IMG/VR virus record: IMGVR_UViG_3300046744_000065
Location: 1-40,001 of that record
From: a virus
Taxonomy: Duplodnaviria; Caudoviricetes
Length of the DNA: 40,001 nucleotides
Direction: 5' to 3' (one strand)
In this document: piece after piece, positions 2 through 40,001 of the stretch
Layout of the letters: every line of letters begins with the position of its first letter
Position numbering within the stretch: position 1 is the first letter of the stretch
Program-made: the position numbers and the translations under genes
Notes under the pieces: model-generated
What the model was told of the DNA's origin: nothing
The model's database searches: none
The model's input: only the letters and a program-made list of their open reading frames with translations

Positions 2-2926
2 AATGAGTTTAGTGATTTAACTGATCCAAGGCAACAAGAAATACAAATGCAAGAAGCTATTCACAATGAAGCAAGAGCAAGATTTTTATCTGTAGAGTTG
101 AGATTTTTATCCAAATCAATGCAACCTGTACGTTATCAAGTTGCTGCTGCAAGGCAAGTAGCTAAAGAATTATTAGCTAAAAAAAGATTAAGAGATATTA
201 GACCCTCAAGATTTAGTAGAAACGAAACTAAAGCTGCAAAAAATGTAGAAGCAGCTATGAAAAAAGCTGATACGTTAGAAGCAATAAAAGCAAAAAAATC
301 ACAGTTATTAAACAATCAATTAGCTAAAGAATCATTAGAAATAATAAAACAATTTGATAACGCAACTAAATTATTTAGAAGCGTATTTCAAACAGATAAA
401 ACATTAGATAAGAAAAATTTTAATACTGATTTAGTTAATGTCGCAAAATCTATTTTAGCTGCTTATGGATTTGGACCTGCTGTTGATAAACCATCACAAT
501 ATACAGAAAAATTACAAGCATATAATCCTGATATGTTTGAACAATTACGTCCGTTAATAGAGGATTTAACTAGAGAAAGTAATCAAGATATTAAAAATTT
601 AACTTACGAAAAATTTGAAACTGTATACGAAACAATACAAACATTAATGTTTCAAGCAAGACGAGATAAGCAAGTTGAAATAGATGGCAAAATATTAGAT
701 TTAGAAGTGCCTGTAAATGAGTTATTGGAAACAATGGCAAGAATGGAAACACCTGATCCAGTAGGAGCTACAGAGTCACCAAGCACTAGAACAAGATTTG
801 CTAGAGCAATGCAACAAGGTAAATCAATGTTAAGACGTATAGAACATTGGGCAGATGGTATGGATGGTGCAACCAAAACTGGTAAAGGTTTAATTGGTAG
901 TGTTGTTTTAGAACGTGATGAAATCCAAGCTGGTCCATTTACAAGATATATTTGGCGGCCAGTAAAAAATGCCCTAAATAAATACAGAATAGAAAGATCA
1001 AATTACACTAAACGCTATTCACAAATGATAAGTAAATTAGATTTAGGTCAAGGTCTTATTACATCTGGAGAATTAGGGTTTACATTTGGTAATGCAAATG
1101 GTCAATACGGTAAAGTCGAAATTCTTGGTGCTATGTTGCATACAGGAAATACAAGTAACTTAAGGAAATTATTATTAGGTCGAGGTTGGGGTGATATTAA
1201 TGAAGACGGTTCATTAAATACAAGTAGATGGGATACTTTTGTAGATCGCATGATTAATGACGGAATTTTGACTAATGAAGATTTTGTGTTTTTACAAGAA
1301 GTCTGGGATTTAAACGAAGAAATAAAACCACTAATACAACAAGCTCATAGAAAAATTTATGGATATTATTTTAAAGAAGTAGAAGCAACACCTACAGTTA
1401 ACAGGTTTGGGTCATTTAGAGGTGGTTACGTTCCAGCCAAAACAAGTCCTTTTTTAGTTGCTAATACAGAATCAAAAGCAAAATTAGAAGATTTAAGAAA
1501 TGAATTTAGACAATCATTGCCTTCTACTGGTAATGGTTTTACTCAAGAACGTGTGGAATATAACAAGCCATTATCATTAGATTTACGATTAATGACTAAG
1601 CATATTGACGATACGATACGGTTTGCGTTTGTACAACCTGCAATAGAAGATGTATTTAAAATTTTAAAAAATAAAGATGTATCTACACGTTTGCAAGAAA
1701 TAGATCCAACAATTATGGACGATGCATTAATGCCTTGGCTTAATCGTTCTGCTAGGCAAACAACTATGGTTGCAGGTCGGTTTAAAGGATTTGATAAGTT
1801 TTGGACAAAAGTTAGAGCCAGTACTGGTGTTGGGATTATGTTTGCAAATATAAGAAATGGATTGCAACAATTTACTGGATATTTCCCTGCAATGATAAAA
1901 GTAGGACCGTCATATTTAAAAAATTCATTAGCTCAATATGTACAAAACCCAATGCAATTTCAAGAAGAAATAGCAGAACTATCACCTTTTATGAAAGAAC
2001 GTCAGTTTAACCAAATATTTGATGTGCAAGATACGTTAAATCAATTATTAATAAATCCAAATCAATATCAAAAAATTCAAAAATGGGCAGAAAGGCACGG
2101 ATATTTTATGCAACAAGCATTTCAAAATCAAGTTGATACTGTAGTCTGGTCTGCTACTTATAACAAAGTTTTAACAGAAAGCCCAAAAACAATGTCTGAA
2201 ATTGATGTACAAAAAGAAGCTATACAACAAGCAGATGCAAATGTGCGTTTAACACAAGATAGTTTACAGGCAGAAGATTTAGCAGCATTTCAAGTTGGGT
2301 CACCTTTTTATAAAACTATGGTTCAATTTGGTGGATATTTTAATATGATTGCAAATTTAAATGCAACACAATATAAAAAATTATTTAAAGATTTAGGATG
2401 GCGAGGAACAAAAGGGCAATTGTTTATGACATATTTATTAGGTTTTGCTTTACCGGCATTTGTTGCAGATTTAATTGTAAGAGCAACAGGTGGTGATCTT
2501 GATGATGAAGACGAAGATGGTTATTTAGATGATGTCGCAGGTTGGTTTTTTAATTCACAATTTAGGTCTGCATTAGCTTTAGTACCTTTTGGGAATATTG
2601 CAATTGTTCCATTTAATTCATTTAACGATTTACCATATGATGACAGGATGACTCTTAGCCCATCTATTTCAACATTAGAAGCATCAACTGTTGGTACTGC
2701 TAGAACTCTTATCAATGTTGCAGATCCTGATAAAGAACTTACAGGAAAAAATGTGAGAGATATATTATCATTAATGACTTTAATTACTGGTATACCATTT
2801 ACATCTATAGGCCGTCCAATTAGTGTTCAGTTCGATATTAATAGAGGTGTTATAGAGCCGGAAAATACACCAGACTATATAAGATCATTAATAACAGGTA
2901 AAGCTAGTCGCAAGAGTCGGGAGTAA
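2..2926 (+). CDS. C-terminal part of large internal virion (ejection) protein, 5'-truncated by window edge
   Basis: Frame is open from position 2 (NEFSDLTDPRQQEIQ) into the ATG at 47. Helical protein with a hydrophobic segment near the C-terminus (LFMTYLLGFALPAFVADLIV), directly upstream of tail fibres. Probably the continuation of the ORF starting at 34768. Confidence 0.75.
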   Translation, partial: NEFSDLTDPRQQEIQMQEAIHNEARARFLSVELRFLSKSMQPVRYQVAAARQVAKELLAKKRLRDIRPSRFSRNETKAAKNVEAAMKKADTLEAIKAKKSQLLNNQLAKESLEIIKQFDNATKLFRSVFQTDKTLDKKNFNTDLVNVAKSILAAYGFGPAVDKPSQYTEKLQAYNPDMFEQLRPLIEDLTRESNQDIKNLTYEKFETVYETIQTLMFQARRDKQVEIDGKILDLEVPVNELLETMARMETPDPVGATESPSTRTRFARAMQQGKSMLRRIEHWADGMDGATKTGKGLIGSVVLERDEIQAGPFTRYIWRPVKNALNKYRIERSNYTKRYSQMISKLDLGQGLITSGELGFTFGNANGQYGKVEILGAMLHTGNTSNLRKLLLGRGWGDINEDGSLNTSRWDTFVDRMINDGILTNEDFVFLQEVWDLNEEIKPLIQQAHRKIYGYYFKEVEATPTVNRFGSFRGGYVPAKTSPFLVANTESKAKLEDLRNEFRQSLPSTGNGFTQERVEYNKPLSLDLRLMTKHIDDTIRFAFVQPAIEDVFKILKNKDVSTRLQEIDPTIMDDALMPWLNRSARQTTMVAGRFKGFDKFWTKVRASTGVGIMFANIRNGLQQFTGYFPAMIKVGPSYLKNSLAQYVQNPMQFQEEIAELSPFMKERQFNQIFDVQDTLNQLLINPNQYQKIQKWAERHGYFMQQAFQNQVDTVVWSATYNKVLTESPKTMSEIDVQKEAIQQADANVRLTQDSLQAEDLAAFQVGSPFYKTMVQFGGYFNMIANLNATQYKKLFKDLGWRGTKGQLFMTYLLGFALPAFVADLIVRATGGDLDDEDEDGYLDDVAGWFFNSQFRSALALVPFGNIAIVPFNSFNDLPYDDRMTLSPSISTLEASTVGTARTLINVADPDKELTGKNVRDILSLMTLITGIPFTSIGRPISVQFDINRGVIEPENTPDYIRSLITGKASRKSRE

Positions 2927-15460: not shown

Positions 15461-15462
15461 TT

Positions 15463-22487: not shown

Positions 22488-22530
22488 TAATGACATCACA
22501 GATAACATTTAGATGTATATCAAATTATTT

Positions 22531-23040: not shown

Positions 23041-23042
23041 TC

Positions 23043-23369
23043 ATGGCAGTTAACGCAGCAATTGCATTAGGAGCAGTTAGTGTTGGATATCAAATATATT
23101 CTGGCCAAAAACAACAAAAGGCACAAAAAGAACAATTAAGATTACAGGCACAATCTAATGAAGATGCCAAGGTAAGAGCAAAAGAAGCTGCTGACCGTGC
23201 TGATATAGAACAAAACAAAGCAAATAGACAAACAGCAAATGTAGGTGCAATACAATCTAAAGAAGAACAATCAGCATTATCAGGACCTGCTGGAACAATG
23301 CTTACTGGTTCGGGTGGAGTGGACAAGAATCAATATAACCTTGGCGGTAACACATTATTAGGTGGTTAA
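23043..23369 (+). CDS. Small virion-associated protein
   Basis: Hydrophobic N-terminus, Gln/Ala coiled coil, GT.LTG...TLLG C-terminus; precedes the portal gene. Confidence 0.65.
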   Translation: MAVNAAIALGAVSVGYQIYSGQKQQKAQKEQLRLQAQSNEDAKVRAKEAADRADIEQNKANRQTANVGAIQSKEEQSALSGPAGTMLTGSGGVDKNQYNLGGNTLLGG

Positions 23370-23372
23370 AAA

Positions 23373-25052
23373 ATGAAAACAAAACGTGCAGAACTGTTAA
23401 GTAGGTGGGGTCACCTTAGATCAGAGAGAGCAACATGGTGGTCACATTGGCAAGAAGTCACTACATATCTGTTACCAAGGAACGGACGTTATTTTCAGCA
23501 AGATAGAAACAAAGGTCATAGAAGGCATAACTCGATATACGACAATACTGGTACAAGAGCATTAAGAACGTTAGGTGCTGGCATGATGGCTGGTGCAACA
23601 TCCCCTGCAAGACCTTGGTTTAGGTTAGCAACAGCAGATCCGGAGTTAAATAGTTATACACCTGTCAAGTTATGGCTAAATGATGTAACAGACCGTATGC
23701 AATTAGTGTTTACTAAGTCCAATACATACCGAACATTGCATGGAATATATGAAGAACTTGGTGCATTTGGTACAGCAGGGTCACTTATTCTTCCTGATCC
23801 CAAAACATCTATCCATCATTACCCAGTAACCATAGGAGAATATGCAATTGCTACGGATTATCAGGGCAGAGTTAATACTTTGTACAGAGAATTCCAAAAA
23901 ACAGTAGGAGAAATTGTAAGAGAGTTTGGATATAACAAATGTTCAACGTCCGTTAAGAACCTGTTTGACAGAGGTAACCTTGATAGTTGGATTACGATAG
24001 TTCATGCCATAGAACCAAGGGATGATAGGGAGCGTGACTTTAAAAAGAAAGACAATATGAACATGGCATACAAGTCTTGTTACTTTGAAGTAGGTGGAGA
24101 TGGTGAAGATGTACTAAGAGAAAGTGGATATAAAGATTTCCCTGCTGTTATTCCTAGATGGGGTATAGCTGGTGGTGATATTTATGGTAATTCACCCGGA
24201 ATGGAGTCATTAGGTGACGTAAAACAGTTACAACATGAACAATTACGCAAAGCACAAGGCATTGATTACCAAACAAAACCACCATTACAAGTACCTAGCT
24301 ACATGAAAAACAGAGATGTAGACAGTTTGCCGGGTGGGGTTACGTTTATTGATGGTCAACAGGGCAAAATTGAGACAGCATTTAACGTAAATCTTAATTT
24401 ACAACACTTGTTAATGGACATACAGGACGTAAGGCAAAGGATAAATGGTAGTTTTTATGCTGATTTGTTTTTAATGTTGGCAAATGCTACTGATACTAGG
24501 ATGACTGCAACAGAAGTAGCAGAACGACATGAAGAAAAACTGCTTATGTTAGGTCCAGTATTGGAAAGATTACATAATGAATTGCTAGATCCGTTGATTG
24601 ACATTACTTTTAACAGAATGATTGAGAGTAATTTAATACCACCTGCCCCAGAAGAATTACAGGGCATGGAATTAAGCGTAGAATTTGTTTCAATGTTGGC
24701 ACAAGCACAACGTGCTATTGGTACAAATAGTGTTGATAGGTATGTAAACAGTATGGGAGCAGTAGCACAAATGAAACCTGACGTATTGGACAAGTTTGAT
24801 TCTGATGCATGGGCTGATGGTTACGCAGATATGCTGGGTGTAGATCCTAAATTAATAGTTGCAGGTGAACGAGTAGCAATGATTCGTCAAGAAAGGGCTA
24901 CAGCACAACAAGCGGCAGCACAAGCTGAAGCAGAACAACGTGCTGTAGAAAATGCAACTAAATTAAATAACAGCAAAACTGGTGATCCATCTCTTATGGA
25001 TATGATGAACCAGTTTAGCGGTTACAATTCACCATCACCATTGGAGGTTTAA
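23373..25052 (+). CDS. Portal / head-to-tail connector
   Basis: TSPARPWF, PRW......YG.SPG and MTATEV..R..EK...LGP motifs of the T7/BPP-1 connector family. Confidence 0.95.
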   Translation: MKTKRAELLSRWGHLRSERATWWSHWQEVTTYLLPRNGRYFQQDRNKGHRRHNSIYDNTGTRALRTLGAGMMAGATSPARPWFRLATADPELNSYTPVKLWLNDVTDRMQLVFTKSNTYRTLHGIYEELGAFGTAGSLILPDPKTSIHHYPVTIGEYAIATDYQGRVNTLYREFQKTVGEIVREFGYNKCSTSVKNLFDRGNLDSWITIVHAIEPRDDRERDFKKKDNMNMAYKSCYFEVGGDGEDVLRESGYKDFPAVIPRWGIAGGDIYGNSPGMESLGDVKQLQHEQLRKAQGIDYQTKPPLQVPSYMKNRDVDSLPGGVTFIDGQQGKIETAFNVNLNLQHLLMDIQDVRQRINGSFYADLFLMLANATDTRMTATEVAERHEEKLLMLGPVLERLHNELLDPLIDITFNRMIESNLIPPAPEELQGMELSVEFVSMLAQAQRAIGTNSVDRYVNSMGAVAQMKPDVLDKFDSDAWADGYADMLGVDPKLIVAGERVAMIRQERATAQQAAAQAEAEQRAVENATKLNNSKTGDPSLMDMMNQFSGYNSPSPLEV

Positions 25053-25217
25053 ATGGAGTATCAAAAAAACAAAAAAGTAAAAATACCGGGAAATTTTAGT
25101 TTCGGTGATTTACCTGCTGAGACTAGAATGAGAATTCTAAAAATGCAAGATGAAGCAAGAAAGGAAGAAGAAAAAAGAAAATTAAAAACACTTTATAACA
25201 AATCAAAAATGGATTAA
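25053..25217 (+). CDS. Small basic hypothetical protein (54 aa)
   Basis: GGAGG RBS; own translation MEYQKNKKVKIPGNFSFGDLPAETRMRILKM...TLYNKSKMD. Confidence 0.6.
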   Translation: MEYQKNKKVKIPGNFSFGDLPAETRMRILKMQDEARKEEEKRKLKTLYNKSKMD

Positions 25218-25219
25218 TT

Positions 25220-25363
25220 ATGAAGAATCAAGGATTATGGGCAAACATTCACGCAAAGCGTAAAAGAATTAAAGACGGTTCTGGTGAACGTATGCGTAAA
25301 AAAAATAGCAAAGGAGCACCAACTAACGAAGCTTTAAAAAATAGCCAAAGTAAGAAAGCATAA
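25220..25363 (+). CDS. Small basic phage protein (47 aa)
   Basis: Own translation MKNQGLWANIHAKRKRIKDGSGERMRKKNSKGAPT...; motif recalled from many aquatic phages. Confidence 0.7.
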   Translation: MKNQGLWANIHAKRKRIKDGSGERMRKKNSKGAPTNEALKNSQSKKA

Positions 25364-25364
25364 G

Positions 25365-25398
25365 GTGTGACCGTAACACGGTTATGACTAGATATATT
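25365..25398 (+). promoter_or_regulatory. Putative late promoter, copy 3 (GTGTGACCGTAA-N16-TATATT)
   Basis: Intergenic; the ATG at 25404 follows the -10 box after 5 nt, suggesting a leaderless mRNA. Confidence 0.8.
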
Positions 25399-25403
25399 AG
25401 AGC

Positions 25404-25748
25404 ATGAGTGAATACAATCCTCTCGACCTCAAAAGTCAACAGAAATCTAAAGACAATAAAAAGTCTGAAGAAAGAATTGACCGCCAAAATGAAGAGTCGG
25501 ACATCAAATGGTTGATGAGCAGCAAGAGGGGTCGCAGATTAATCTGGAGACTTCTGGAGCAAGCAGGTGTTTTCCGATCATCGTTCAACACTAACGCAAT
25601 GGCAATGTCATTTAGCGAAGGTAACAGGAATTATGGTTTGCAAATACTAAACTTAATTCACACTCTCTGCCCAGAGCTATACCCGACAATGATTAAGGAG
25701 CAAAAAAATGTCAGACACGCTGATGACGGAAGCCAACCAAACAAATGA
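25404..25748 (+). CDS. Bbp19-like head assembly protein
   Basis: D.KWLM....GRR..WRLL...G...MSFSEG.RN.GL motif; between portal and scaffold. Confidence 0.8.
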   Translation: MSEYNPLDLKSQQKSKDNKKSEERIDRQNEESDIKWLMSSKRGRRLIWRLLEQAGVFRSSFNTNAMAMSFSEGNRNYGLQILNLIHTLCPELYPTMIKEQKNVRHADDGSQPNK

Positions 25749-26394
25749 AGGCGATACGCAGCAGCCAGTAGACGCAACAACTGAGCAATCAACTGAAGCA
25801 ACTACTGACACACAGCAGCAAGCTGAAGCTGTACAGGATCAACAAGGTTCGGATGAATCCTCTGTTGAAAGTGAAACTAGCGAATCAGAAGCACCCGAAG
25901 GTGCACCTGAGACATACGAGTTTAACGATAAGGTGGCTGACGCACCAGAAGAACTCGACCCCGAAGTCTTAACTGCATTCGGTGAAGTCGCTAAAGAACT
26001 TGACCTGCCACAGGACGCTGCACAAAAAGTAATTGACAAGGTTGCACCTGTCATGCAAGCCAGACAAGCAAAGATGGTTGAGCAAGTAAGAGTAGATTGG
26101 GCAAATGAAGCAAAAGCCGACCAAGAATTTGGTGGTGAAAATTTAAATGCCAATCTTGAAGTTGCTAAATCATCTTTAAATACGTTTGGTACTGATGCTT
26201 TGAAGTCGCTGCTGCAAGAATCTGGCTTGGGAAATCATCCCGAAGTAATTCGGTTTATGTACCGAGCAGGTAAGGCAATTAGTGAAGATGCTTATGTTGG
26301 TAATTCACAGGGTGCTAATGCTAAAAGCAATGGTATTCCTAAAGATTTTGACGGCATAGCAAACGCACTATATTCAAATCAGCAAAACAAGTAA
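25708..26394 (+). CDS. Capsid scaffolding protein
   Basis: Acidic disordered N-terminus, APETY, GLGNHP..IR......K.ISED; precedes the major capsid gene. Confidence 0.8.
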   Translation: MSDTLMTEANQTNEGDTQQPVDATTEQSTEATTDTQQQAEAVQDQQGSDESSVESETSESEAPEGAPETYEFNDKVADAPEELDPEVLTAFGEVAKELDLPQDAAQKVIDKVAPVMQARQAKMVEQVRVDWANEAKADQEFGGENLNANLEVAKSSLNTFGTDALKSLLQESGLGNHPEVIRFMYRAGKAISEDAYVGNSQGANAKSNGIPKDFDGIANALYSNQQNK

Positions 26395-26405
26395 GGAGTT
26401 ATTAA

Positions 26406-27425
26406 ATGGCTACACTTTCAAATTCAAATTTAACACTAGCGGATTGGGCAAAAAGATCTGACCCAGACGGTAGAGTTCCAATCGTTGCAGAGTTATTATC
26501 TCAAACCAACGAAATACTAGATGATTGCGTGTTTAAAGAAGGTAATTTACCTACTGGTGAACGTGTAATTATTAGAACTGGTTTACCAGCAGTTTATTTC
26601 CGTGCATTAAACCAAGGTATTCCGGGAAGCAAGTCAACAACTGCACAAGTTGATGAAGCGTGTGCAATTCTTGAAGCTCGTTCTGAAGTAGACAAAGACT
26701 TAGCGATGTTAAATGGTAACACCGCACAGTTCCGTCTATCTGAAGATACTGCTTTCCTAGAAGCAATGAATCAGACTCAAGCTGAAACAATGTTTTACGG
26801 TAATCCCGGAACAGATCCTAAGAAGTTTTTAGGTCTTGCACCAAGATACGGTGATCTTTCCGCAGATAATGCTGTAAACATTCTTGATGCAGGTGGATCA
26901 GGTTCTGATAACGCTTCTGTATATCTAGTTGTTTGGGGTGATCAAACAGTTTATTGTCCTTTCCCTAAAGGATCTAAAGCAGGTTTGATGCATGAAGATC
27001 TAGGTGAGCAAACTGTTTACAATAGTGATGGTACAAGGCTACAAGCTTTTGCTACACGTTACCAATGGAAGAACGGTTTGGTTGTTAAAGATTGGAGATA
27101 CGTTGTTCGTATTTGCAACATTGACATTTCTGATTTAGGTGGAGTTACTGGTACTCAAGCGACTACTGCTGCAACTGCACTTGTTAAATTAATGGCAAAA
27201 GCAACTTACAGAATACCTAACATGGCTCTAGGTAGAGCAGCATTTTATATGAACAGAACAGTTCATTCTGGTTTGTCAATTGCAGCAATGGATAAATCAC
27301 AAAATGTTTTAGAAATTGAAAAAGGATTAACACAGTTTGGACAAGCAAAAAGCTACTTATCATTCTTAGGTACTCCAATCAGACAGGTAGATTCCTTAAT
27401 CAATGCTGAAGCTCGTGTAACTTAA
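26406..27425 (+). CDS. Major capsid protein (BPP-1 Bbp17-like)
   Basis: TL.D.AKR.D, E.L...NEIL.D, RTGLP, SEVD..LA, YG......KF.GL.PRY, DWRYVVRI.NID, G.PIR..D motifs; AAGGAG RBS. Confidence 0.9.
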   Translation: MATLSNSNLTLADWAKRSDPDGRVPIVAELLSQTNEILDDCVFKEGNLPTGERVIIRTGLPAVYFRALNQGIPGSKSTTAQVDEACAILEARSEVDKDLAMLNGNTAQFRLSEDTAFLEAMNQTQAETMFYGNPGTDPKKFLGLAPRYGDLSADNAVNILDAGGSGSDNASVYLVVWGDQTVYCPFPKGSKAGLMHEDLGEQTVYNSDGTRLQAFATRYQWKNGLVVKDWRYVVRICNIDISDLGGVTGTQATTAATALVKLMAKATYRIPNMALGRAAFYMNRTVHSGLSIAAMDKSQNVLEIEKGLTQFGQAKSYLSFLGTPIRQVDSLINAEARVT

Positions 27426-27469
27426 TAGTTACTTAGATTATTCTTTTATTTTTTGGAGATTTTTACAAA

Positions 27470-27901
27470 ATGATTACAGATGCATTGCTCAGAGTGAGTG
27501 AAGATCAAGCGGTTACAACAACTGCTGTATCTACTAACACTATTGATTTAGGTGTTGCTAGAGACATAGGTGAAGGTACTGCTTTGTACATGAACTTTGC
27601 ACTAACCGAAGCATTTGCTAACGGTACTAGCGTACTTTTTGAAGTAATTACTAGTGCAAGTGCAAACTTAGGTACACCTACTGTTATTGGTAGCAGTACA
27701 GTATTGGCTACAGCAGCACTTACATTAGGTAAGAACGTTGTTGTACGCTTAAATCCAGATATTGCTGGCAAAGGCCAAAGATATCTTGGTGCTAGGTATA
27801 CAGTTGTAGGTACTATGAATGCAGGTAAAGTAACTGCTGATATAGTAGAAACAATTGGTGATGGACAGAAGTACTATGCTTCTGGCTTTACCGTAGCTTA
27901 A
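27470..27901 (+). CDS. Capsid cement/decoration protein (Bbp16-like)
   Basis: MI.D..L..S..QA.T.TA.STN.IDL...RYL...YTV; follows the major capsid gene. Confidence 0.8.
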   Translation: MITDALLRVSEDQAVTTTAVSTNTIDLGVARDIGEGTALYMNFALTEAFANGTSVLFEVITSASANLGTPTVIGSSTVLATAALTLGKNVVVRLNPDIAGKGQRYLGARYTVVGTMNAGKVTADIVETIGDGQKYYASGFTVA

Positions 27902-27915
27902 ACTAAGAACGACTT

Positions 27916-28209
27916 ATGCCTATTTACAAAGCAAAAATTAAGTGTTTCGTTGGCCAATCTATAAGAGAAGTTGACGAAGAATTTGAGTATAACGGAGAGT
28001 ATTGCAAACATCTTGAGCTAGTTAGTGGTCAAGAACCTCAGACACCTGTAGCGTCTACTACACCTGTGGAATCTGAAGTAAAGATAACTAATTTAGAATT
28101 GATGACTAAAGCAGAACTTGAAGTTTATGGTCGCACTATCGGTATTGAACTTGATAGGAGACAAACAAAAGATACTCTTATTAAACAACTTGAAGCAGCT
28201 AGTAAATAG
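27916..28209 (+). CDS. Hypothetical protein with C-terminal helix-extension-helix-like motif
   Basis: MTKAELEVYGRTIGIELDRRQTKDTLIKQL. Confidence 0.65.
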   Translation: MPIYKAKIKCFVGQSIREVDEEFEYNGEYCKHLELVSGQEPQTPVASTTPVESEVKITNLELMTKAELEVYGRTIGIELDRRQTKDTLIKQLEAASK

Positions 28210-28233
28210 GTTTAGTCTTCTTATTTGATTTAC

Positions 28234-28270
28234 AGGGGGCTAGTAGTATTACTGCTATCCTCCTCTTTTT
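28234..28270 (+). terminator. Putative intrinsic terminator after capsid genes
   Basis: AGGGGG-C-TAGTAGT-ATT-ACTGCTA-T-CCTCCT imperfect hairpin followed by CTTTTT. Confidence 0.65.
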
Positions 28271-28282
28271 ATAGGAGATGTT

Positions 28283-28951
28283 ATGGCAACTGAAGTAGAT
28301 ATTTGCAACCTTGCCCTAGCTCATTTGGGTGATGATGCAACAATAGCTTCGCTATCCCCACCAGAAGGATCAGCACAAGCAGAAAAAGCTGCACGTTTTT
28401 ATCCAATTGCTAGAAACAGTTTGCTTGAAATGCATACATGGAATTTTGCAGCAAAACGTGGCAATTTAGCATTAACTACAAATACATTAGATCAATGGGA
28501 TTATGCATATGTTGCACCTGCGGATATGATGTCACCTGTTTCAGTTATATCTCCAACAGCACAAAATGATTATGCTACAAGAATGTCAGCAGGGGATACT
28601 CCCGGAGGAATAACAAGTAATTATGCACCAACAATTGTGGCAGGTCAATATACACCACAACAGTTTGCAGTAGAAGGATCATATATTTATACAAACCAAG
28701 AAAATGCAATGTTGAGATATCAGGCATTTATAACAGATCCATCGTTATTTTCTCCATTGTTTGTTGTTACATTGTCATGGCATCTGGCATCAATGCTTGC
28801 AGGTCCTATTATTAAAGGTGATCAAGGAGCGGCAGAAGCAAAACGTAGTACACAAATGATGGTTAATTATTTAACAAGTGCAAAACAATCTGACAATTTA
28901 CATCGAGATATAACAGTAGAGCATATAGTACCTTGGACTTCTGGGAGATAA
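28283..28951 (+). CDS. Tail tubular protein A / adaptor
   Basis: DICNLAL..LG, L..H.WNFA, Y..P.D, F...L...LA motifs. Confidence 0.85.
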   Translation: MATEVDICNLALAHLGDDATIASLSPPEGSAQAEKAARFYPIARNSLLEMHTWNFAAKRGNLALTTNTLDQWDYAYVAPADMMSPVSVISPTAQNDYATRMSAGDTPGGITSNYAPTIVAGQYTPQQFAVEGSYIYTNQENAMLRYQAFITDPSLFSPLFVVTLSWHLASMLAGPIIKGDQGAAEAKRSTQMMVNYLTSAKQSDNLHRDITVEHIVPWTSGR

Positions 28952-28954
28952 TTA

Positions 28955-31423
28955 ATGCCAGTTACACGCAACTTTAAACAAGCATTTTCTGGAGGAGAAA
29001 TATCACCAGAAATGTTTGGTCGTATTGCTGATAATAAATTTCAACAAGGTGCATCATTGATGCGTAATTTTATTGCTAAACCACAAGGACCTGCACAAAA
29101 TAGACCGGGTCTTGCATTTGTAAAAGCAGTTAAAGATAGTACAAAAGCAACAAGATTATTATCTTTTACCTTTAATACTACCCAAACTATGGCTATAGAG
29201 TTTGGTGATCAATATTTTAGATTTCATACGCAAGGTCAAACATTAAATTACAGCGATGGCACAGCATGGAATAGCGGTACTAACTATGCAATAGGAGATA
29301 TAGCTAAATATAGTGGTACAAATTATTATGCAAAAACTGCACATTCAAACAGTCAACCTCCAAACTCTACAAATTGGTATGCATTACCTGCTGATATGAC
29401 ATATGAAATACCTCATTCATATTTAGAAGCACAATTATTTGATGTGCATTATGTACAGTCTGCTGACGTTATGACTTTGGTACATCCTAGTCATCCACCT
29501 AAAGAATTAAGAAGACTTGGGGCTACACAATGGGAATTAAAAACAATAGATTTTGGTAGCCCATTAACTGCCCCTACAGGTGTATCAGTTAGTGCTTATA
29601 TACCTTCTTCTACTAGTACAAATTCTGATACTTATGAAGATCATATTTATGTTGTAACTGCTGTAAAAGCAAATTTAATAGACGAAAGTAATCAATCCAG
29701 TAGTGCTACTGTGAGCAATAATATTTTTGTAACTGGTGCTAAAAATACTATTTCTTGGAATGCAGTTACTGATGCTTCAAGGTACAAAGTATATAAAGAT
29801 CAAGGCGGTATTTTTGGTTTTATAGGAGAAACAACTACTACATCTATAGTTGATAATAATATTTCTCCAGATTTTTCTGTTACTCCACCAATCCATGAAA
29901 ATGATTTTGTAGGTACTGGTAATTATCCCGGTGCTGTATCTTATTTTGAACAACGTAGAGTGTTTGCAGGTACAAATAATGCACCACAAAATATATGGAT
30001 GACCAAATCTGGAACTGAAAGTAATATGTCATTTGGATTACCTATACGAGATGATGATCGTATTGAGTTTAGAGTTGCTGCTCGTGAAGCAAATACAATT
30101 AGACATATTGTTCCTTTAACAAATTTACTTATGCTTACAGGATCAGCAGAATGGAGAATTACTTCTGTTAATAGTGATGCTATAACACCAACATCTATAT
30201 CAGTAAAACCACAATCATATGTTGGGTCTAATAATGCACAACCAGTAATTGTTAATAATAGCTTAGTATATACTGCTGCTCGTGGTGGTCACGTTAGAGA
30301 ACTTGGTTATAACTGGCAAGCAAATGGATTTGTTACAGGTGATCTATCACTTCGTGCTCCACATTTATTTGATAATTTAGAAATAAAAGATATGGGGTTA
30401 TCAAAAGCTCCGTTACCAATTGTATGGATGGTTAGCAGTAATGGTAAACTATTAGGTCTTACATATGTACCAGAACAAGCAATAGGAGCATGGCATCAAC
30501 ATGACACAGACGGTACGTTTGAAAGTGTAGCTTGTGTTTCTGAAGGCAATGATGATGTTTTATATGCAGTAATAAAAAGAACTGTAAATGGTAATAGCGT
30601 TAGATATATAGAACGTATGGGAACAAGATTATATGCAACACAACGTGATAGTTTTTTTGTAGATGCAGGTGCTACTTACGATGGTACTAATACAAATACA
30701 GCACAAAATGTCACTATATCTGGCGGTACAAATTACACAAAGGGAGAAAGCGTTACGATAACAGCTAATTATAATTTATTTACTGCTCCACCTAGTACCA
30801 ATGATATTGGCGATGCAATTGTATTAGTAGATGGCACAAATTATTACAGATGCAATATAACTTCTACTTCAAGTGCAACAGTAGCAACCGCCAAACTTGA
30901 CAGAGATTTACCTGTATCTTTGCGTAATACAGCAATAACAACGTATGAAGTTGCAAGAAATGTTTTTACTAATGGATTAGATCATCTAGAAGGCAAAACA
31001 GTAAACATCTTGGCAGATGGTGCGGTACATCCACAAAAAGTAGTTTCTAGTGGTTCTATTACTTTAGATCAGGCATCTAGTGTTGTTCATATTGGATTAC
31101 CTATAGAAGCTGATTTGCAAACTTTACCTATGGCATTACAGGTAGAAGCATTTGGTCAAGGCAGAGTAAAAAATTTAAACCATGTTTGGTTACGAGTATT
31201 AGAAAGTTCTGGTATTTTTGCAGGTCCTAGTGCAGATAAATTAGTAGAAGCAAAACAACGTACAACAGAACCATATGGATCGCCACCAAATTTAAAAACG
31301 CAAGATATTAAAATTATGCTTACACCAACATGGCAAGATAATGGGCAATTATTTGTAAGGCAAACAGACCCATTACCATTGACAGTTGTAGGTTTAACAT
31401 TAGAAGTAGCAATGGGTGGATAG
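28955..31423 (+). CDS. Tail tubular protein B / nozzle
   Basis: FSGGEISP...GR, QSADV, YP.AV..FEQR and AWHQH motifs; contains a short carbohydrate-binding-like insert (AWNSGTNYAIGD...NW). Confidence 0.9.
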   Translation: MPVTRNFKQAFSGGEISPEMFGRIADNKFQQGASLMRNFIAKPQGPAQNRPGLAFVKAVKDSTKATRLLSFTFNTTQTMAIEFGDQYFRFHTQGQTLNYSDGTAWNSGTNYAIGDIAKYSGTNYYAKTAHSNSQPPNSTNWYALPADMTYEIPHSYLEAQLFDVHYVQSADVMTLVHPSHPPKELRRLGATQWELKTIDFGSPLTAPTGVSVSAYIPSSTSTNSDTYEDHIYVVTAVKANLIDESNQSSSATVSNNIFVTGAKNTISWNAVTDASRYKVYKDQGGIFGFIGETTTTSIVDNNISPDFSVTPPIHENDFVGTGNYPGAVSYFEQRRVFAGTNNAPQNIWMTKSGTESNMSFGLPIRDDDRIEFRVAAREANTIRHIVPLTNLLMLTGSAEWRITSVNSDAITPTSISVKPQSYVGSNNAQPVIVNNSLVYTAARGGHVRELGYNWQANGFVTGDLSLRAPHLFDNLEIKDMGLSKAPLPIVWMVSSNGKLLGLTYVPEQAIGAWHQHDTDGTFESVACVSEGNDDVLYAVIKRTVNGNSVRYIERMGTRLYATQRDSFFVDAGATYDGTNTNTAQNVTISGGTNYTKGESVTITANYNLFTAPPSTNDIGDAIVLVDGTNYYRCNITSTSSATVATAKLDRDLPVSLRNTAITTYEVARNVFTNGLDHLEGKTVNILADGAVHPQKVVSSGSITLDQASSVVHIGLPIEADLQTLPMALQVEAFGQGRVKNLNHVWLRVLESSGIFAGPSADKLVEAKQRTTEPYGSPPNLKTQDIKIMLTPTWQDNGQLFVRQTDPLPLTVVGLTLEVAMGG

Positions 31424-31456
31424 TGTGACCGTAAACAGATATAGTGTGTGTATATT
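31423..31456 (+). promoter_or_regulatory. Putative late promoter, copy 4 (GTGTGACCGTAA-N16-TATATT)
   Basis: Intergenic, upstream of the ejection-protein genes. Confidence 0.8.
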
Positions 31457-31481
31457 AGAAAAATAAGAGAGTGTAGAAGTT

Positions 31482-32093
31482 ATGGCAACATCTGTTCAAT
31501 CAACTACAGTAACAGGAACAAGCTGGAGTGATTTAAGTCCTTTAGGGCAAGCTGGAATTATTACACAAGGTTTTGGTGCTTTAAGTGGTGCTATTGGTTC
31601 ATTTTATTCTGCAAAGTCAGAACAAAATAAAGCTAGAAGTTTGGCATTAAATTTAGAACATAAAGCAGATATGCTGCTTTTTAATAAACGTATGAAAGAA
31701 AGTCAAGCAGAATTTATAGGCCGTCAAGCAAACAAAGCGTTTCAAATACAATCAATAAAAGCAGGTAATAGAAGGTCTAGAGCTAGAGCATCATTTGGAG
31801 CTAGAGGAATACAGATGGGAGTGGGAAGTACTAAAGATGCATTTGTTAGTTCTGAAATATTAGCGACTTTAGATAAGCTTACTATGAATTCAAATAAGGT
31901 AAGAGCTATGTCTAATAAACGACTAGAAGCTGTTGATATTGGTATAAGAGCGGACATGACAAGTCTTAGTGCTAGTAATATGTTCCAAACGGCATCTTCT
32001 ATTGATCCTTTTTTCAGTATGAGTAGTAGTTTATTAACTGGTGCAAGTAGCATTATTGGTAGTTTGCCACCTTCTATGTTTCTTAAAAAATAA
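31482..32093 (+). CDS. Internal virion protein (gp14-like)
   Basis: Gly/Ala hydrophobic termini and an A.GI....GS motif; first of three post-nozzle genes. Confidence 0.7.
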   Translation: MATSVQSTTVTGTSWSDLSPLGQAGIITQGFGALSGAIGSFYSAKSEQNKARSLALNLEHKADMLLFNKRMKESQAEFIGRQANKAFQIQSIKAGNRRSRARASFGARGIQMGVGSTKDAFVSSEILATLDKLTMNSNKVRAMSNKRLEAVDIGIRADMTSLSASNMFQTASSIDPFFSMSSSLLTGASSIIGSLPPSMFLKK

Positions 32094-34767: not shown

Positions 34768-37700
34768 ATGTCTGATAATCCTTTTGACATTATAAAAAAA
34801 TCACCAAGTCAAAACTATGGTAATGATAATCCTTTTGACCTTATACGAGAAAAAAGAAATCAAAGAAATGATAATTTAATAAAACAAACTTTAAATGCTG
34901 TTTCTAAATTAGATCCTGATAGAACTGGTGAAGCACAAAAATTAGCAGAGCGTTTAAATTTACCGTCAAACATTGCTTTAGATAGTGATGAAACTTTAAG
35001 ACTTTTAAAAGAAAGAAATAAAGAAAGAAATATATATGAATTGGATTTAGCACAAACAAATCCTATATTGATGCGTCATTTAACTGATCCTGATTTTGCA
35101 GCTATAGCACAAGATAATGTTGAGCAGTTAGGTCTTATTGAATCAACATTTTCTGGAATACAAAATTTTCCTGAGAACGTTGGACAAGGTTTTGAAAAGG
35201 GAAGATTAGAAGCTGAAATGGGTAAGCTTGGATTTCAAAAAGGTTTAAACGTAGAGTTAGGTAAAACTAATGAATCTATAAATAAACGTATAGAAGAAAT
35301 TGGTGTAAGACTAGCAGAACTAGAAGGTGATGGTTCGGGTCTTTGGGAAAACACAGGTTCTATTGTTGGTCAATGGTCACGGACATTACAAGAATCAGTA
35401 AAATATGGAACGGCAGGTGCTGCTACAGGTGGAACACTAGGATTAGCAGGTGGTCCTTTTGCTCCTATTACAGTTAAAGGTGGTGCAATTACTGGATTTA
35501 TATGGGGATTAACAACAGGCTCTGCAAAAGAAGGAGCAATGATAGAAGCAGGTCATCAATACAATGAATTAATAGAAAATGGTATTTCGCACGAAACTGC
35601 AAAAAATGTTGGAATTGCAGTTGGCCTTGTAAATGGTGGATTAGAATTTGTAGGTCTTGGTCTGGTTTTAGGTCCGGCAAAACAATTGTTAATAAGAGCA
35701 ACACTAAAAGAAGTAAATAAATCTTTGAGAAAATACACAATGCAGCAGGTATTTAGAACAGCAGGTACGACTGCTTTTCGTAATTGGGCATCAGAAGTTG
35801 CAACAGAAGAATTACAAGAATTGGTAAATATTGCAGGTGCTGATTTTGCAGATTATTTTGATACAGGTGAGTTCGAAAGTAAATTTGCTACAGAAAAAGG
35901 TAGAGAAGAAATAGCACAAAGACTTGCTGCTGTATTTGAAAAAGTTGGTACTGGTATGATTCCACTTGCAGGTTTAAGTGCAGGGCCTACATTTTTTTCA
36001 AATAGTACAAAATCTAAAGAAGCAACAAAAAATACTGCATTTGTAGAATCACTAGCTACTTTATCTGCTAACGATAAAACTAAAATTAGAAATCCTAATA
36101 AATTTCAAAAATATATACAAGACGTAGCAGACGGAAAAGACGTTCCTAATATTTTTATAGATGCAAAACCATTTAATCAAGCATTAAAAGATAACGGTAT
36201 AACAACAGAACAATTAGAAATGTTTTCTCCGCAAATAGCAAATGATTTAAAAGATATAAATGGTACTGGAGAAAGTGGTGATCTAATAATACCAACAGGA
36301 GAATATGCAACAAACATTGCAGGTACTCAATTAGGTAATGCATTACAACCTCATATTCGTGTTACAGAAGATAGTTTTAGTGCTACAGAAGCAGGGGTAT
36401 TTGAAACTGAAAAAGATACATTAAAAAAACAGGCAGAACAAATAATAAATAACGATGAAAATGCAAAAAAAGAATTAATAAAAGAAGGTAAAGCTATAGA
36501 AGAAAATATTACACAACAATTAAAAAATGCAAAACTAAAAGCTTTTACACCTAGTCGAATTAAATATTTAGCACCTTTAGTAAGAGATTTTGCAATAGTG
36601 CAAGCAAATCAATTAGGAATAAAACCTAGTGAATTTTTTAGTAAATATTTTTACAACATAACTACTGACGATAAATTTAATAAATTAGCAGAAGAACAGT
36701 TGTTTAATCAGGATGGCACGGTAAAAACAGAATCACCTGCGTTTAAAAACTTTTTTGGCCAATCTAAAATAGTTGACAAAGATGGTTCTCCTTTAGTTGT
36801 ATATCATGGAACTACAGACAGCATAAGCGAATTTAAATTAGATCATCCGCATAGATTAGATAGTGGTTGGTTAGGTACTGGAGTTTATGTAACTGATAAT
36901 ATTCTCTTAGCTGAACAATATACAAAATTAAAAAAAGAAAGAATTAAATCAGGTCGTTTACCACCCGGTCCTACAGATCCAATAATTATGCCTTTGTATG
37001 TGCGTTTAGAAAATCCATACGAAGCAACTTTAGAAGATAAAAACAAAATTAGAACAGGTCAAATAACAGCACAAGGATTTAGAGATCAATTAATTGCACA
37101 AGGACATGATGGTGCGATAATGCCGGGTCAAATGCAAAATGTTAGGGAAATAGTTGTATTTGATCCTAAAGCAGTTAAATCAACAGAAAATAGTGGCACA
37201 TGGAGAAGGGATCTAGCAAATATATATAAACAATTAAAAGCTGATGATGAGCTTTTTGCACAGAGAGGTAAACAAAAACAAGGTAAGCCAGTACCAGAAG
37301 CTGTATTTCAAATTGCAAAAATAACTGAAAATTTTGATTTTGCAACTAGTAAACCATTTGGAACTATTAAAGATTTTAAAATAGAAATACAAAAGAAAGT
37401 CAACAATGAAGCTAAAAAAGGTAAAGTTAATGTTTCTGAACCTACCGTAGAAGTAGAAAAATATTTAGTAAAAACATTATTAGCAGATGCTCAATACGCT
37501 TTAGTAGAAAATCCAAACGCAATAGGTTGGTACAACGAAAAAGTTACAAAAGCTAAAAGGTTATTAGCAAAAATACATCCAGAATTAACTACTGATGCAG
37601 CATCAAATTTTGCTTTTACTTGGGCATTAGCAACTACATCTAACGGTATAGATGTAAATACAAATTTTGACCTTGCAGAAGATGTGTACAGTTACTGGAA

Positions 37701-40001
37701 ACAAAATGGTAAGTTTCCAACACCTTATGGGCAGGGCAAAGCAGGTCGTGCTATGTCAAAAAGTTTTAAATTAATAAATGAATTAATTGAGAAAAACGGT
37801 GTAGAAGATGTAGAAAAATTTATGAGTACAACACATACAGTAAAAGAAGTAGAAACATATACAGGTGTTGAAGTTACAGATTTCGGTAAAACAGAAATAG
37901 TTTATGGTGCTGCTGTTATTGGCCCTAAAATAGGTAATGGATTTTTTGCAAATCTATATGGTAATTATGAACAACTAACTTTAGATAGATGGGCTATGCG
38001 TACATGGGGTCGCATGACAGGTACGTTAGTTACTGATTATACAAAGCAAGCTAGAAATAAACGTGACCAATTAAAACAATATATAAAAGCTTTAACCAAA
38101 AAACAAAAAAAAGAATTTGAAACAATCCTTGGTAGAAAACTTACATTAGGTGATTTAGATGCAGTTGCAAAAAGAATAGAGACTAGAACAACCATACCTG
38201 CTAATCGTAAATTAATGGCAGCAATATCTTTAATTCAACCTGATAACAATGTTGGTGAAATAATAACAAACATTAAGGGTAAACCTATAAAAGGTGAACC
38301 CAGAATAAGTATTGGAGATGAAATTCGTAAGGCAGGTAATTCATTGGCAGGGTATTTAGATGGTCAAAAAGAACAGCCTAAAGGACCACCAGAAAGAAGA
38401 TTTATAGAAAAAGTTTTTGGGCAAGTGTTGCCAGTATTGCAACAACAAGAAAAAAATCTGACTATGGCAGATTTGCAAGCACTTATGTGGTATCCAGAAA
38501 AAAAATTATATGATACTGCAAAATTAAAAGAAACAGTAGTAGAAACAGGTTACGAAGATAACGCAGCACCTGATTATGCCAATGCTGCTGCAAGTTTAGT
38601 TGCTAGAATGGGTATATCAGAAGCTGACATACAATCTACATTACAGGAGGTAGACAATGAGTTATCAGTACAATCCGAGGAGCAATCAGGAGACACACAA
38701 CGAAATGTTGGAGAATCTGGATCTGTACGAGGAGTTGATACTTTCCAACAACAAGGACTTGAATCAGAAGGAACAAACATTGACGAGACCACAGGACTCC
38801 CCCTTAATGCAGACGGAACAGTTACCGTCTACCACCACACCAGTAGAGCAAACGCAGAACGAATCAAAGATACAGGTGAACTCAGAAGTGCTTCAGAACC
38901 TGATGTCTACGTTACCACCAGAGCTATCGCAGATACTGGCTATGGCGATACAGCAGTTGCCATCAGAGTCGAACCTTCTAGACTTAGTCTCGATGATGAA
39001 TTCCCTAACGGACGAAGAGATTACAGACTCTCAGTTGGAAAGCCTAGAGGATCTATTCGAGTAGATGTAGGAGAGTTTGCACAACAACAAGAATCTGAAG
39101 GTCCTAGAGGACAGTTTAGCCCGACAACATTAACAACAATACTTACACAAGAAGCAGATTTTTCTACGTTTTTACATGAGACAGCACATTATATGTTGAC
39201 CGTTATGGAAGACATAGCAATGTCTGGAAAAGGTTCAGAACAACAAAATAATGATTTTCAAACATTGTTAGACTTTTTTGGTGTTAAAGATATACAAACA
39301 TGGAGCAAGTTATCGTTAGACGAAAAAAGAAAATATCACGAAAGTTTTGCATATAATTATGAAATTTATTTATTTGAAGGCAAAGCACCAAATAATAAAT
39401 TACAAGAAATTTTTAATGAATTTCAAAAATTTTTAAAACGAATATATAAAACAATAACTGATGAGTTAAATAAGCTATACAGACAAGAAAACGGTACAGA
39501 TTTACCAATACTTACTGATGAAATAAGAAGTGTAATGGATCGTATGATTGCTAGTGAAGAACAAATCACACAAGCAGAAGCAATATATGGAATGAAGCCT
39601 ATGTTCCAAACACAAGAAGAAAGTAATATGGATGACGCTACATGGAAAGAATATAGCGATGCAATAAAACAAGCACAGGATGAATCATTGCAAAAATTAA
39701 CTGAAGCTAGTATGCGACAAGTAAAATGGCTAGGTAATGCTAAAGATAAATATATTAAAAATTTACAAAAAGATGTAGCAAATACTAGAAAAAAAGTAAT
39801 GCAAGAAGAAACTAATAAAATAGAAAAAGAAAAACTATATCAACTACACGCATTTTTAAAACGTGGTGAATTTATAAATGATAATAACGAAAGAGTTGTA
39901 GCAGGTGACGGTTACAAAATAGATATAAATTCTTTAAAAAATTCAATACCATTTTTTGATATGAGTGAAATTATTAAAAAATTTGGCCGTGGTAAATATG
40001 G
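34768..40001 (+). CDS. Giant polyvalent internal virion protein, 3'-truncated (ART, HhH-like, ART, HExxH peptidase domains)
   Basis: ATG at 34768 (MSDNPFDII...) with no stop seen to the window end (~1744 codons; absent from the ORF track, consistent with no stop). Motifs: VYHGT at 36799, GPKIG at 37921, VYHHT at 38827, HETAH at 39175. Confidence 0.85.
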   Translation, partial: MSDNPFDIIKKSPSQNYGNDNPFDLIREKRNQRNDNLIKQTLNAVSKLDPDRTGEAQKLAERLNLPSNIALDSDETLRLLKERNKERNIYELDLAQTNPILMRHLTDPDFAAIAQDNVEQLGLIESTFSGIQNFPENVGQGFEKGRLEAEMGKLGFQKGLNVELGKTNESINKRIEEIGVRLAELEGDGSGLWENTGSIVGQWSRTLQESVKYGTAGAATGGTLGLAGGPFAPITVKGGAITGFIWGLTTGSAKEGAMIEAGHQYNELIENGISHETAKNVGIAVGLVNGGLEFVGLGLVLGPAKQLLIRATLKEVNKSLRKYTMQQVFRTAGTTAFRNWASEVATEELQELVNIAGADFADYFDTGEFESKFATEKGREEIAQRLAAVFEKVGTGMIPLAGLSAGPTFFSNSTKSKEATKNTAFVESLATLSANDKTKIRNPNKFQKYIQDVADGKDVPNIFIDAKPFNQALKDNGITTEQLEMFSPQIANDLKDINGTGESGDLIIPTGEYATNIAGTQLGNALQPHIRVTEDSFSATEAGVFETEKDTLKKQAEQIINNDENAKKELIKEGKAIEENITQQLKNAKLKAFTPSRIKYLAPLVRDFAIVQANQLGIKPSEFFSKYFYNITTDDKFNKLAEEQLFNQDGTVKTESPAFKNFFGQSKIVDKDGSPLVVYHGTTDSISEFKLDHPHRLDSGWLGTGVYVTDNILLAEQYTKLKKERIKSGRLPPGPTDPIIMPLYVRLENPYEATLEDKNKIRTGQITAQGFRDQLIAQGHDGAIMPGQMQNVREIVVFDPKAVKSTENSGTWRRDLANIYKQLKADDELFAQRGKQKQGKPVPEAVFQIAKITENFDFATSKPFGTIKDFKIEIQKKVNNEAKKGKVNVSEPTVEVEKYLVKTLLADAQYALVENPNAIGWYNEKVTKAKRLLAKIHPELTTDAASNFAFTWALATTSNGIDVNTNFDLAEDVYSYWKQNGKFPTPYGQGKAGRAMSKSFKLINELIEKNGVEDVEKFMSTTHTVKEVETYTGVEVTDFGKTEIVYGAAVIGPKIGNGFFANLYGNYEQLTLDRWAMRTWGRMTGTLVTDYTKQARNKRDQLKQYIKALTKKQKKEFETILGRKLTLGDLDAVAKRIETRTTIPANRKLMAAISLIQPDNNVGEIITNIKGKPIKGEPRISIGDEIRKAGNSLAGYLDGQKEQPKGPPERRFIEKVFGQVLPVLQQQEKNLTMADLQALMWYPEKKLYDTAKLKETVVETGYEDNAAPDYANAAASLVARMGISEADIQSTLQEVDNELSVQSEEQSGDTQRNVGESGSVRGVDTFQQQGLESEGTNIDETTGLPLNADGTVTVYHHTSRANAERIKDTGELRSASEPDVYVTTRAIADTGYGDTAVAIRVEPSRLSLDDEFPNGRRDYRLSVGKPRGSIRVDVGEFAQQQESEGPRGQFSPTTLTTILTQEADFSTFLHETAHYMLTVMEDIAMSGKGSEQQNNDFQTLLDFFGVKDIQTWSKLSLDEKRKYHESFAYNYEIYLFEGKAPNNKLQEIFNEFQKFLKRIYKTITDELNKLYRQENGTDLPILTDEIRSVMDRMIASEEQITQAEAIYGMKPMFQTQEESNMDDATWKEYSDAIKQAQDESLQKLTEASMRQVKWLGNAKDKYIKNLQKDVANTRKKVMQEETNKIEKEKLYQLHAFLKRGEFINDNNERVVAGDGYKIDINSLKNSIPFFDMSEIIKKFGRGKY
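38657..39064 (+). CDS. Nested out-of-frame ORF (135 aa, acidic)
   Basis: AGGAGG at 38645-38650, 6 nt before the ATG; +1 frame inside the giant gene. Confidence 0.5.
   Translation: MSYQYNPRSNQETHNEMLENLDLYEELILSNNKDLNQKEQTLTRPQDSPLMQTEQLPSTTTPVEQTQNESKIQVNSEVLQNLMSTLPPELSQILAMAIQQLPSESNLLDLVSMMNSLTDEEITDSQLESLEDLFE

Follow-up and report, generated by a model that had tools for sequence, protein, structure and literature searches.

We report here a gene of 135 codons that lies in the +1 frame of a much larger virion gene in a viral contig of 40,001 nucleotides (nt), IMG/VR record IMGVR_UViG_3300046744_000065, positions 1 to 40,001, the whole of which is called the window below. The nested gene occupies 38657..39064 and, like every other feature described here unless stated otherwise, is on the + strand. 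The nested frame initiates separately, is under purifying selection and is fixed behind one domain of the outer protein, an HhH-like domain related to DUF7178. Its 3' part lies over the domain that follows, a second ART-fold domain referred to here as ART2. Judging from comparison of the sequences, the nested gene is likely to be of mixed age, an older helix tied to the upstream domain joined to an acidic tail overprinted de novo on ART2. What its product does is a more tentative matter; our preferred explanation, to which we give slightly less than an even chance, is that it would inhibit the upstream domain during assembly.

An open +1 frame within the giant gene

The first-pass annotation of the window had described AGGAGG 6 nt ahead of ATG 38657, a 135-codon open reading frame (ORF) in +1 and a stop at 39064, and these coordinates hold. 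AGGAGG lies at 38645-38650, within a Shine-Dalgarno (SD) sequence AGGAGGT (38645..38651) that falls on the main-frame codons CAG GAG GTA. A +1 stop, TAG at 38651-38653, stands one codon ahead of the nested start, and the nested ORF itself ends in TAG at 39062-39064; the frame is +1 relative to the gene that starts at 34768. The stop-free run amounts to 136 codons, the next longest within the same frame of the giant gene being 38. That such a run is unusual, as had been proposed, is borne out by synonymous re-coding with the codon usage of the phage: 9.8 stops are expected and the region stayed open in none of 20,000 draws (analytic value ~3e-7), while re-coding of the whole gene reached 135 codons in none of 2,000 draws, with a maximum of 96. 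The shift towards C-ending main-frame codons was also correctly noted, third-position C being 0.36 at main codons 1351-1395, 0.18 in both neighbouring intervals and 0.00-0.13 elsewhere in the gene. Internal promoters showed no excess (6 found, 6.6 expected).

The nested ORF begins 30 codons behind the HhH-like domain and 43 codons ahead of ART2, so that only its 3' two-thirds overlie ART2, and it stops at ART2 domain codon 93, just past the last predicted strand. An earlier description of the ORF as lying exactly over ART2 is thus accurate at the 3' end and inaccurate at the 5' end, where the first 43 codons are on the upstream linker.

Conservation and selection in the marine clade

After leaving out 6 truncated loci, we compared 158 distinct ART2 cores. 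The +1 frame is open in 106 of them, has an early stop in one (L041, by 11 codons) and carries 1-10 stops in 51. ART2 copies outside the ART2-bearing marine clade (hereafter the clade) are closed in 51 of 51 cases, including AT-rich copies such as L365 with 10 stops and L134 with 7. Main-frame searches alone gave an open +1 frame in 102 of 154 cores; four cores found with the nested-ORF query alone are excluded from this fraction and included in the 102 of 106 given below for the SD. Among the 80 viral loci recovered by the main frame, +1 is open over ART2 in 78, one of which ends at the contig end, and +2 has 3-13 stops in every one.

The initiation signal is conserved as well. An SD of at least 6 nt, placed 5 nt from the start, is present in 102 of the 106 non-truncated clade members, compared to a background of 96 in 21,671, and the start codons of those 102 are ATG (76), TTG (19) and GTG (7), switches between which cost residue changes in the main frame. 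The position of the stop codon is identical in 100 of 106 members. Over the overlap, synonymous codons are fixed by position. SN/NS, which relates main-silent substitutions to those that change the main frame and are +1-silent, is 1.7 inside; the flanks give 4.3-5.4 and outgroup ART2 gives 12. The rate of substitutions silent in both frames is about 6-fold that of transversions to which only the main frame is silent. The clearest signal is at the beginning of the gene: over the first 30 nested codons the pattern of codon positions is inverted, with a pos3/pos1 ratio of 0.36 in the clade compared to 2.1 upstream, and the +1 protein differs by 0.090 compared to 0.178 for the main frame (45 disjoint pairs); in relatives without ART2 the ratio is 0.66, and it rises to ~2.0-2.5 both upstream and past codon 100 (37 pairs). 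With or without ART2, then, the +1 protein is the more conserved frame over these 30 codons, and the +1 frame is still open where main-frame identity is down to 67%. Two further measures were uninformative: NN/NS does not discriminate (0.37 inside, 0.33 and 0.48 in the flanks), and NTA codons are avoided before pyrimidines (1/501) as well as purines (1/1,227), so that this control fails to isolate stop avoidance.

A frame open beyond chance and in homologues, a conserved initiation signal and suppressed synonymous change together with selection on a second protein are among the marks of a functional overlapping gene, and these three are found here. The first-pass annotation had proposed an overprinted gene under dual-coding constraint; in the homologues the frame is indeed open with SD and start kept, synonymous variation is suppressed, the +1 protein is the better conserved over the linker, and we saw neither a frame broken in close homologues nor a codon shift explained by transfer alone. 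Gene callers at ENA called the product on many short contigs (61 protein matches, none named), and RNA-library contigs of relatives span the region in two runs, contigs that show neither the frame nor the level of expression. We consider it all but certain that the nested gene is real.

Some individual loci deserve mention. A GC-richer relative, L333 (1915 onward; GC content at third codon positions 0.54), has the full arrangement with a 144-aa nested ORF that runs 22 codons beyond the usual stop. In L349, L473 and L530 the giant gene is interrupted by a single in-frame stop not far beyond the HhH-like domain (within ART2 in one of the three), and the nested frame is intact; these giant-gene stops are either assembly error or real truncation. 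In L283 (ART2 match 3001-3318) the open stretch of the +1 frame begins 71 codons ahead of ART2 and reaches ART2 codon 81, behind a different upstream domain, possibly by chance among 51 copies.

The nested product and the domain beneath its tail

AlphaFold predicts a low-confidence N-terminal helix (residues 11-33), a disordered middle and four helices at residues 76-134. The N-terminal motif with its predicted helix (residues 6-33, 38672..38755) overlaps the main-frame linker and is common to relatives without ART2. The predicted four-helix C-terminal part (residues 76-134, 38882..39058; pLDDT, the model's local confidence, ~83) is acidic and overprinted on ART2; its tail sequence reads as the first-pass annotation quoted it. 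The whole product has 24 acidic and 5 basic residues, and clade members have net charges of -11 to -22; they contain more Glu and less Lys than ordinary +1 frames do. Matches of the nested protein in Pfam and PHROG were weak, and no informative sequence match was found in PDB. Foldseek gave no fold match under E 0.001, and other structural comparisons reached a best Z of 5.5 and a best Atlas value of 0.81, an outcome that signals neither a new fold nor an absence of relatives.

ART2 covers amino acids 1340-1435 of the outer protein (38785..39072). No Pfam family scored above its cut-off, the Tox-ART-HYD1 match being 14.8 bits compared to a cut-off of 25. The model has a pLDDT of 90.7 and its top structural matches are ART-fold proteins, the closest being TreTu (Z 7.1, root-mean-square deviation (rmsd) 2.8, 82 aligned) and KptA (Z 6.9, rmsd 2.8, 78 aligned). 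By its modelled fold, ART2 belongs to the ART superfamily. A candidate triad of His 38833, Tyr 38908 and Asp 39019 is kept in 106 of 107 clade cores and in 50-51 of 51 others; these putative assignments would suit the H-Y-D ART clades, which have His in strand 1, Tyr in strand 2 and Asp in strand 5. ART2 is compact and highly conserved, occurs in varied proteins among 486 cluster representatives, and is 50-90% identical across unrelated ones (window 38785-39072, P0062-P0211); a comparison with cultured phages gave no match.

Since ART2 is widespread and the +1 overprint over it is confined to the clade, the tail is the younger of the two frames by the distribution criterion as described in PMC8227390; the C-terminal part has a narrower distribution than the main frame, as de novo overprinting requires. 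Over the linker either frame may be the older, with +1 the more conserved. Outside these arrangements, in L239:2252-2539, ART2 ends a 304-aa protein and the +1 tail sequence is kept with two stops, which from its sequence is likely a decayed copy after transfer.

The nested gene follows the upstream domain

The HhH-like, DUF7178-related domain covers amino acids 905-1292 (37480..38643), and an end motif, APDYANAA, starts at 38566. Its invariant GPKIG lysine (37927) and aspartate (37984) are 19 residues apart; both residues are invariant in 58 alignment rows and the spacing is 19 in 75 of 75. A Lys plus Asp motif is typical of HhH glycosylase-lyases, with a spacing of 19 in OGG1; in the Nth sequences compared it is 18. 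At the level of this motif, the domain may be a glycosylase. It lies directly upstream of the nested gene in all clade members with enough sequence, and a search made with a narrow choice of queries returned no loci with the domain at a C-terminus.

In three scans 495 viral loci matched, and the best 80 per scan together with three GenBank phages, the window and L333 made 132 distinct loci, from which 75 representatives below 85% identity were drawn; 73 of these are without ART2. Proteins that have the HhH-like domain and no ART2 show a low-complexity main-frame stretch behind it. Behind the HhH-like domain, 20-50 codons past APDY, the +1 frame reads a Q-x-E-H-N-like motif in 39 of 75 representatives; the motif is missing from +2 in all 75 and from all 825 control intervals upstream. 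A wider pattern raises this to 48 (the Q-type), of which 47 have a start codon, mostly at +30 to +32. A scan blind to the motif (ATG, SD and 30 open codons) also peaks at +30, with 28 counts compared to 0-2 per bin inside the upstream domain. The spacing between domain and nested start is nearly constant at identities of ~31-57% and in many different architectures. Counting a second motif described below, one of two motifs stands behind the upstream domain in 65 of 75 representatives; a small co-inherited gene in this place is positioned as in toxin-immunity pairs.

The nine-member subfamily of the window (support 96 in a quick tree with the C-terminal types pooled) shares the helix, and what follows it varies: ART2, a peptidase-like region, an ART-PolyVal-like domain (assigned by eye) or others. 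In members without ART2 the nested ORF stops after ~30-60 codons. The cultured Limnohabitans phage DC33, which infects Limnohabitans sp. DCL3, has a 71-aa nested form that is unannotated in its record, as is the nested gene in all three GenBank records checked; in DC33 the nested start lies 31 codons past APDY, within the gene at 22242-31619. In L211 the HhH-like domain is 32% identical and followed by ART2, and a 32-aa ORF with a similar motif stops before ART2. This locus, the 51 closed copies and the recurrence of start and motif without ART2 weigh against the earlier proposal that the nested gene travels with ART2 as one cassette.

Other nested forms were seen behind the HhH-like domain. 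The L378-L528 group (e.g. L386:3933-4019) and the DC33 locus L615 have ~70-aa nested ORFs ending in a conserved helical hairpin, D-P-I-E...H-P-x-L-T-R...F-G-F. This P-x-L-T type of C-terminus gave no family match and no alignment with the ART2-type tail; matches to TAL repeats were rejected as summed short matches. The taxonomy line of the DC33 record (PQ492659.1, L615) reads Inoviridae, and the accompanying paper (PMC12195039) describes a tailed dsDNA phage; its main text is without the terms 'overlap', 'virion' and 'proteom'. A second nested +1 type, in the L536-L581 group (17 of 75), sits at the end of the HhH-like domain, is open from ~33 codons before APDY and has an acidic E-I-D-W-D-L-L motif, with an in-frame ATG at -12 to -1 in 17 of 17 and an SD of at least 4 nt in 9. 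The nested ORF of this group may be a frameshift fusion. For the clade, frameshift fusion from the upstream domain was rejected, as 74 of 97 have a +1 stop one codon before the start; 32 of the 48 Q-type representatives have a stop between APDY and the motif.

Possible function of the nested protein

Packaging and injection are predicted for polyvalent proteins (as presented in PMC5512222), and a DNA- or cell-damaging domain in one must therefore stay silent while the protein is made. As such an effector domain is internal to the polyprotein, an adjacent partner gene is possible only out of frame. The proposed target had been given as ART2 or the HhH-like domain; as the latter is followed by the nested start and N-terminal motif also in proteins that lack ART2, it is the better candidate of the two.

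We suggest that the nested gene, a second +1 gene with its own ribosome-binding site, would likely be translated late from the virion-gene mRNA, and that the N-terminal helix of its small helical product would likely bind the HhH-like domain, a presumed DNA-attacking enzyme. The bound domain would be kept inactive until the giant protein is packaged, and would then be injected without the nested protein. ART2 would have been inserted behind the linker, after which the +1 frame was presumably opened anew over ~90 of its codons, and the older N-terminal helix would thereby have gained a de novo acidic tail that may additionally contact ART2.

Several points weigh against this account. Neighbouring genes are inherited together simply because they are adjacent, and linkage is accordingly no proof of binding. 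The upstream domain had no PDB or NCBIfam match and no profile match to a shallow 8-row alignment of Nth/MutY/AlkA type (probability 0.3%). The motif patterns were composed after inspection of the sequences, the shared motif is short, with one invariant column in 45 rows, and 17 of 75 representatives carry a different motif (acidic E-I-D-W-D) and 10 match neither pattern. The motif-blind scan has a second peak at -10 (35 counts), just ahead of APDY; conservation of the main-frame motif there accounts for part of this peak, which in 17 of 17 cases shares the frame of the second motif. The SD is weaker outside the clade (at least 4 nt in 34 of 48; background 222 of 1,637) and absent from the L211 ORF, and in the window the SD-ATG pattern by itself is not significant (3 matches, a number reached in 7 of 100 shuffles), its weight coming from its conservation across relatives. 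Finally, the C-terminal tail is 0.83 identical within the clade, a strong conservation for which the model has no need.

The alternative that fares best, which we nevertheless consider unlikely, is that the nested protein is independent of its neighbours, with for example a late host target, and owes its place to history, a small gene next to what had been a separate domain having been engulfed by main-frame read-through. A more conserved +1 linker opposite a low-complexity main frame is what would be expected if the small gene were the older, and the C-terminal parts are distinct conserved modules. An engulfed gene does not readily account for a start that is nearly fixed relative to the domain across such divergence and so many architectures. 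Nor were free-standing copies found in a search insensitive to short distant ones, all 61 protein matches being close relatives of the overlap product.

A still less probable reading, and the main one of the first-pass annotation, is that the nested protein is an immunity factor for ART2, the acidic four-helix part capping the NAD site. The proximity of the ART2 fold to TreTu and KptA is in its favour, as are the selection on the tail over ART2 (fixed synonymous codons, the rate contrast and the conserved stop) and the loss of the frame in L239, where ART2 moved into another protein. This reading is difficult to square with the absence of the overprint from all 51 ART2 copies elsewhere, with nested genes that have no ART2, or with L211, which has both domains and no extension over ART2. 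Moreover, L041 has lost the last 11 residues, and TriTu is a beta-sheet lid (as described in PMC9825190) compared to a product predicted to be all-helical.

We think it quite improbable that the nested protein is an assembly chaperone or packaging adaptor of the whole 2,700-aa ejection protein: the strong SD on a virion-gene mRNA, the location of the host gene within the internal-virion module and a product predicted to be helical and acidic with a flexible middle would all suit such a role, but the giant proteins vary in nearly every other domain and the gene tracks only one. That there is no functional protein at all, the signal coming either from codon bias in a domain of recent transfer or from an internal SD that merely regulates translation of the giant gene, would fit the NTA avoidance before pyrimidines and an NN/NS no lower inside than in the flanks, but is very improbable given start switches made at a cost in main-frame residues, position-specific synonymous choices, a signal that peaks in the linker outside the transferred domain and a +1 frame that is open even at the lowest main-frame identity.

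Inhibition of the upstream domain could be part of a broader scheme, in which an out-of-frame antitoxin stands right behind a virion-delivered effector, its tail re-evolves over whichever domain follows (in this case an intact ART), and one hidden gene guards two neighbouring enzymes; we regard this scheme in full as speculative and unlikely. The data reveal a gene family that has escaped annotation in podovirus-like phages widespread in aquatic environments. They also provide a probable case of de novo extension over an intact enzyme domain, one for which the ancestral condition with a closed frame (51 copies), a sister with the short form and a decayed copy are all available. The preferred explanation suggests how phages could make injected effector domains without self-harm, an open point for polyvalent proteins, and the short form in the cultured DC33 makes the idea directly testable.

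Genomic setting

The 40-kb contig belongs to a podovirus-like phage. It has genes for terminase, portal, major capsid and tail as well as internal virion genes, and its capsid protein is 82-85% identical to those of DC33, two Manatee Spring phages and phage zth2-2. The outer gene of the nested ORF encodes a giant polyvalent virion protein. It runs from 34768 to 40001 and, the contig being circularly permuted, resumes with its C-terminal part at 2..2926, with ~51 codons absent at the junction; both parts match phrog_9880 and align to residues 3-1746 and 1798-2777 of a related protein, L001. The domain order is LPD22, ART-PolyVal, the HhH-like DUF7178-related domain, ART2 and an HExxH region. 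LPD22 (amino acids 42-133, 34891..35166) matches Pfam PF18834 at E 1.8e-11 and the first ART domain, ART-PolyVal (amino acids 670-809, 36775..37194), matches PF18760 at E 1.5e-16. The HExxH motif after ART2 (39175..39189) was identified in the sequence, with no Pfam match at this place, and lies in a region that we take to be metallopeptidase-like. Polyvalent-protein domains within a virion gene block are what defines a phage polyvalent protein, and the outer gene has them.

Elsewhere in the window, 13252-16404 on the - strand holds genes for a RecE-like exonuclease, a RecT-like annealing protein and a DnaC-like loader. The tail-fibre gene (2991-4730) has a 78-codon stop-free +1 run from 3685 onward, the second longest alternative-frame run among the large + strand genes, and the same stretch is overlapped by a 216-aa antisense ORF (3368-4018).

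Comparison with known systems

The outer protein resembles the polyvalent proteins described by Iyer et al. 2017 (PMC5512222), for which packaging and injection were predicted and among which H-Y-D ARTs were described, in being a large virion-module protein with LPD22 and ART-PolyVal. The main text of that paper is without the words 'overlapping' and 'glycosylase', and we found no nested partner gene in it. Our literature searches, which did not extend to supplements, found no paper that describes this nested gene or any partner nested within polyvalent proteins, and none on DUF7178.

Ugi is a DNA-mimic inhibitor, and a small acidic product recalls inhibitors of this kind. The likeness, for which p56 (as described in PMC2018632) is an example, is limited to the clade: such mimics would be strongly acidic throughout a family, whereas other Q-type members have net charges of -10 to +5, and since these relatives are not strongly acidic DNA mimicry is a poor fit for the family. 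The upstream domain shares the G-x-K...D motif with HhH glycosylases, including the anti-phage Dag proteins (as presented in 10.1101/2025.10.29.685425), despite the lack of a profile match.

The Rhs pairs TreTu/TriTu, TreX/TriX and RhsP2/RhsI2 (as described in PMC9825190) share with the present locus an ART fold, that of ART2, and a small gene behind an effector domain; internally expressed Rhs toxin-antitoxin modules (PMC7043789, as far as that source describes them) are a related toxin-immunity case. In the Rhs pairs, however, the toxin is C-terminal, the immunity gene separate and the linked domain an ART, whereas in the present locus an internal domain is followed by a small gene in another frame of the same ORF, and the linked domain is HhH-like. 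TriTu, moreover, is a five-stranded beta-sheet lid, unlike the predicted all-helical nested product (again as described in PMC9825190).

Embedded genes are known from the spanins Rz/Rz1, whose layouts are embedded, overlapped or separated and whose embedded product binds the outer-gene product (as described in PMC6139136), binding that is only proposed here. Rz and Rz1 are lysis proteins, a membrane protein and a lipoprotein, with no sequence relation to the present pair, whereas our outer gene encodes a virion polyprotein and the 3' part of the nested gene, unlike theirs, is replaced along with the downstream domain. The nested gene resembles the overprinted phiX174 genes E and K (as presented in PMC8227390) in the narrower distribution of its C-terminal part, its shifted codon usage and the accessory role that would be expected. 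It differs from them in its chimeric age: its N-terminal part is found as widely as the upstream domain, and is better conserved than the linker in the main frame. Embedded phage genes, overprinting and ART toxin-immunity pairs are thus already known, and what is new is a hidden gene family of mixed age.

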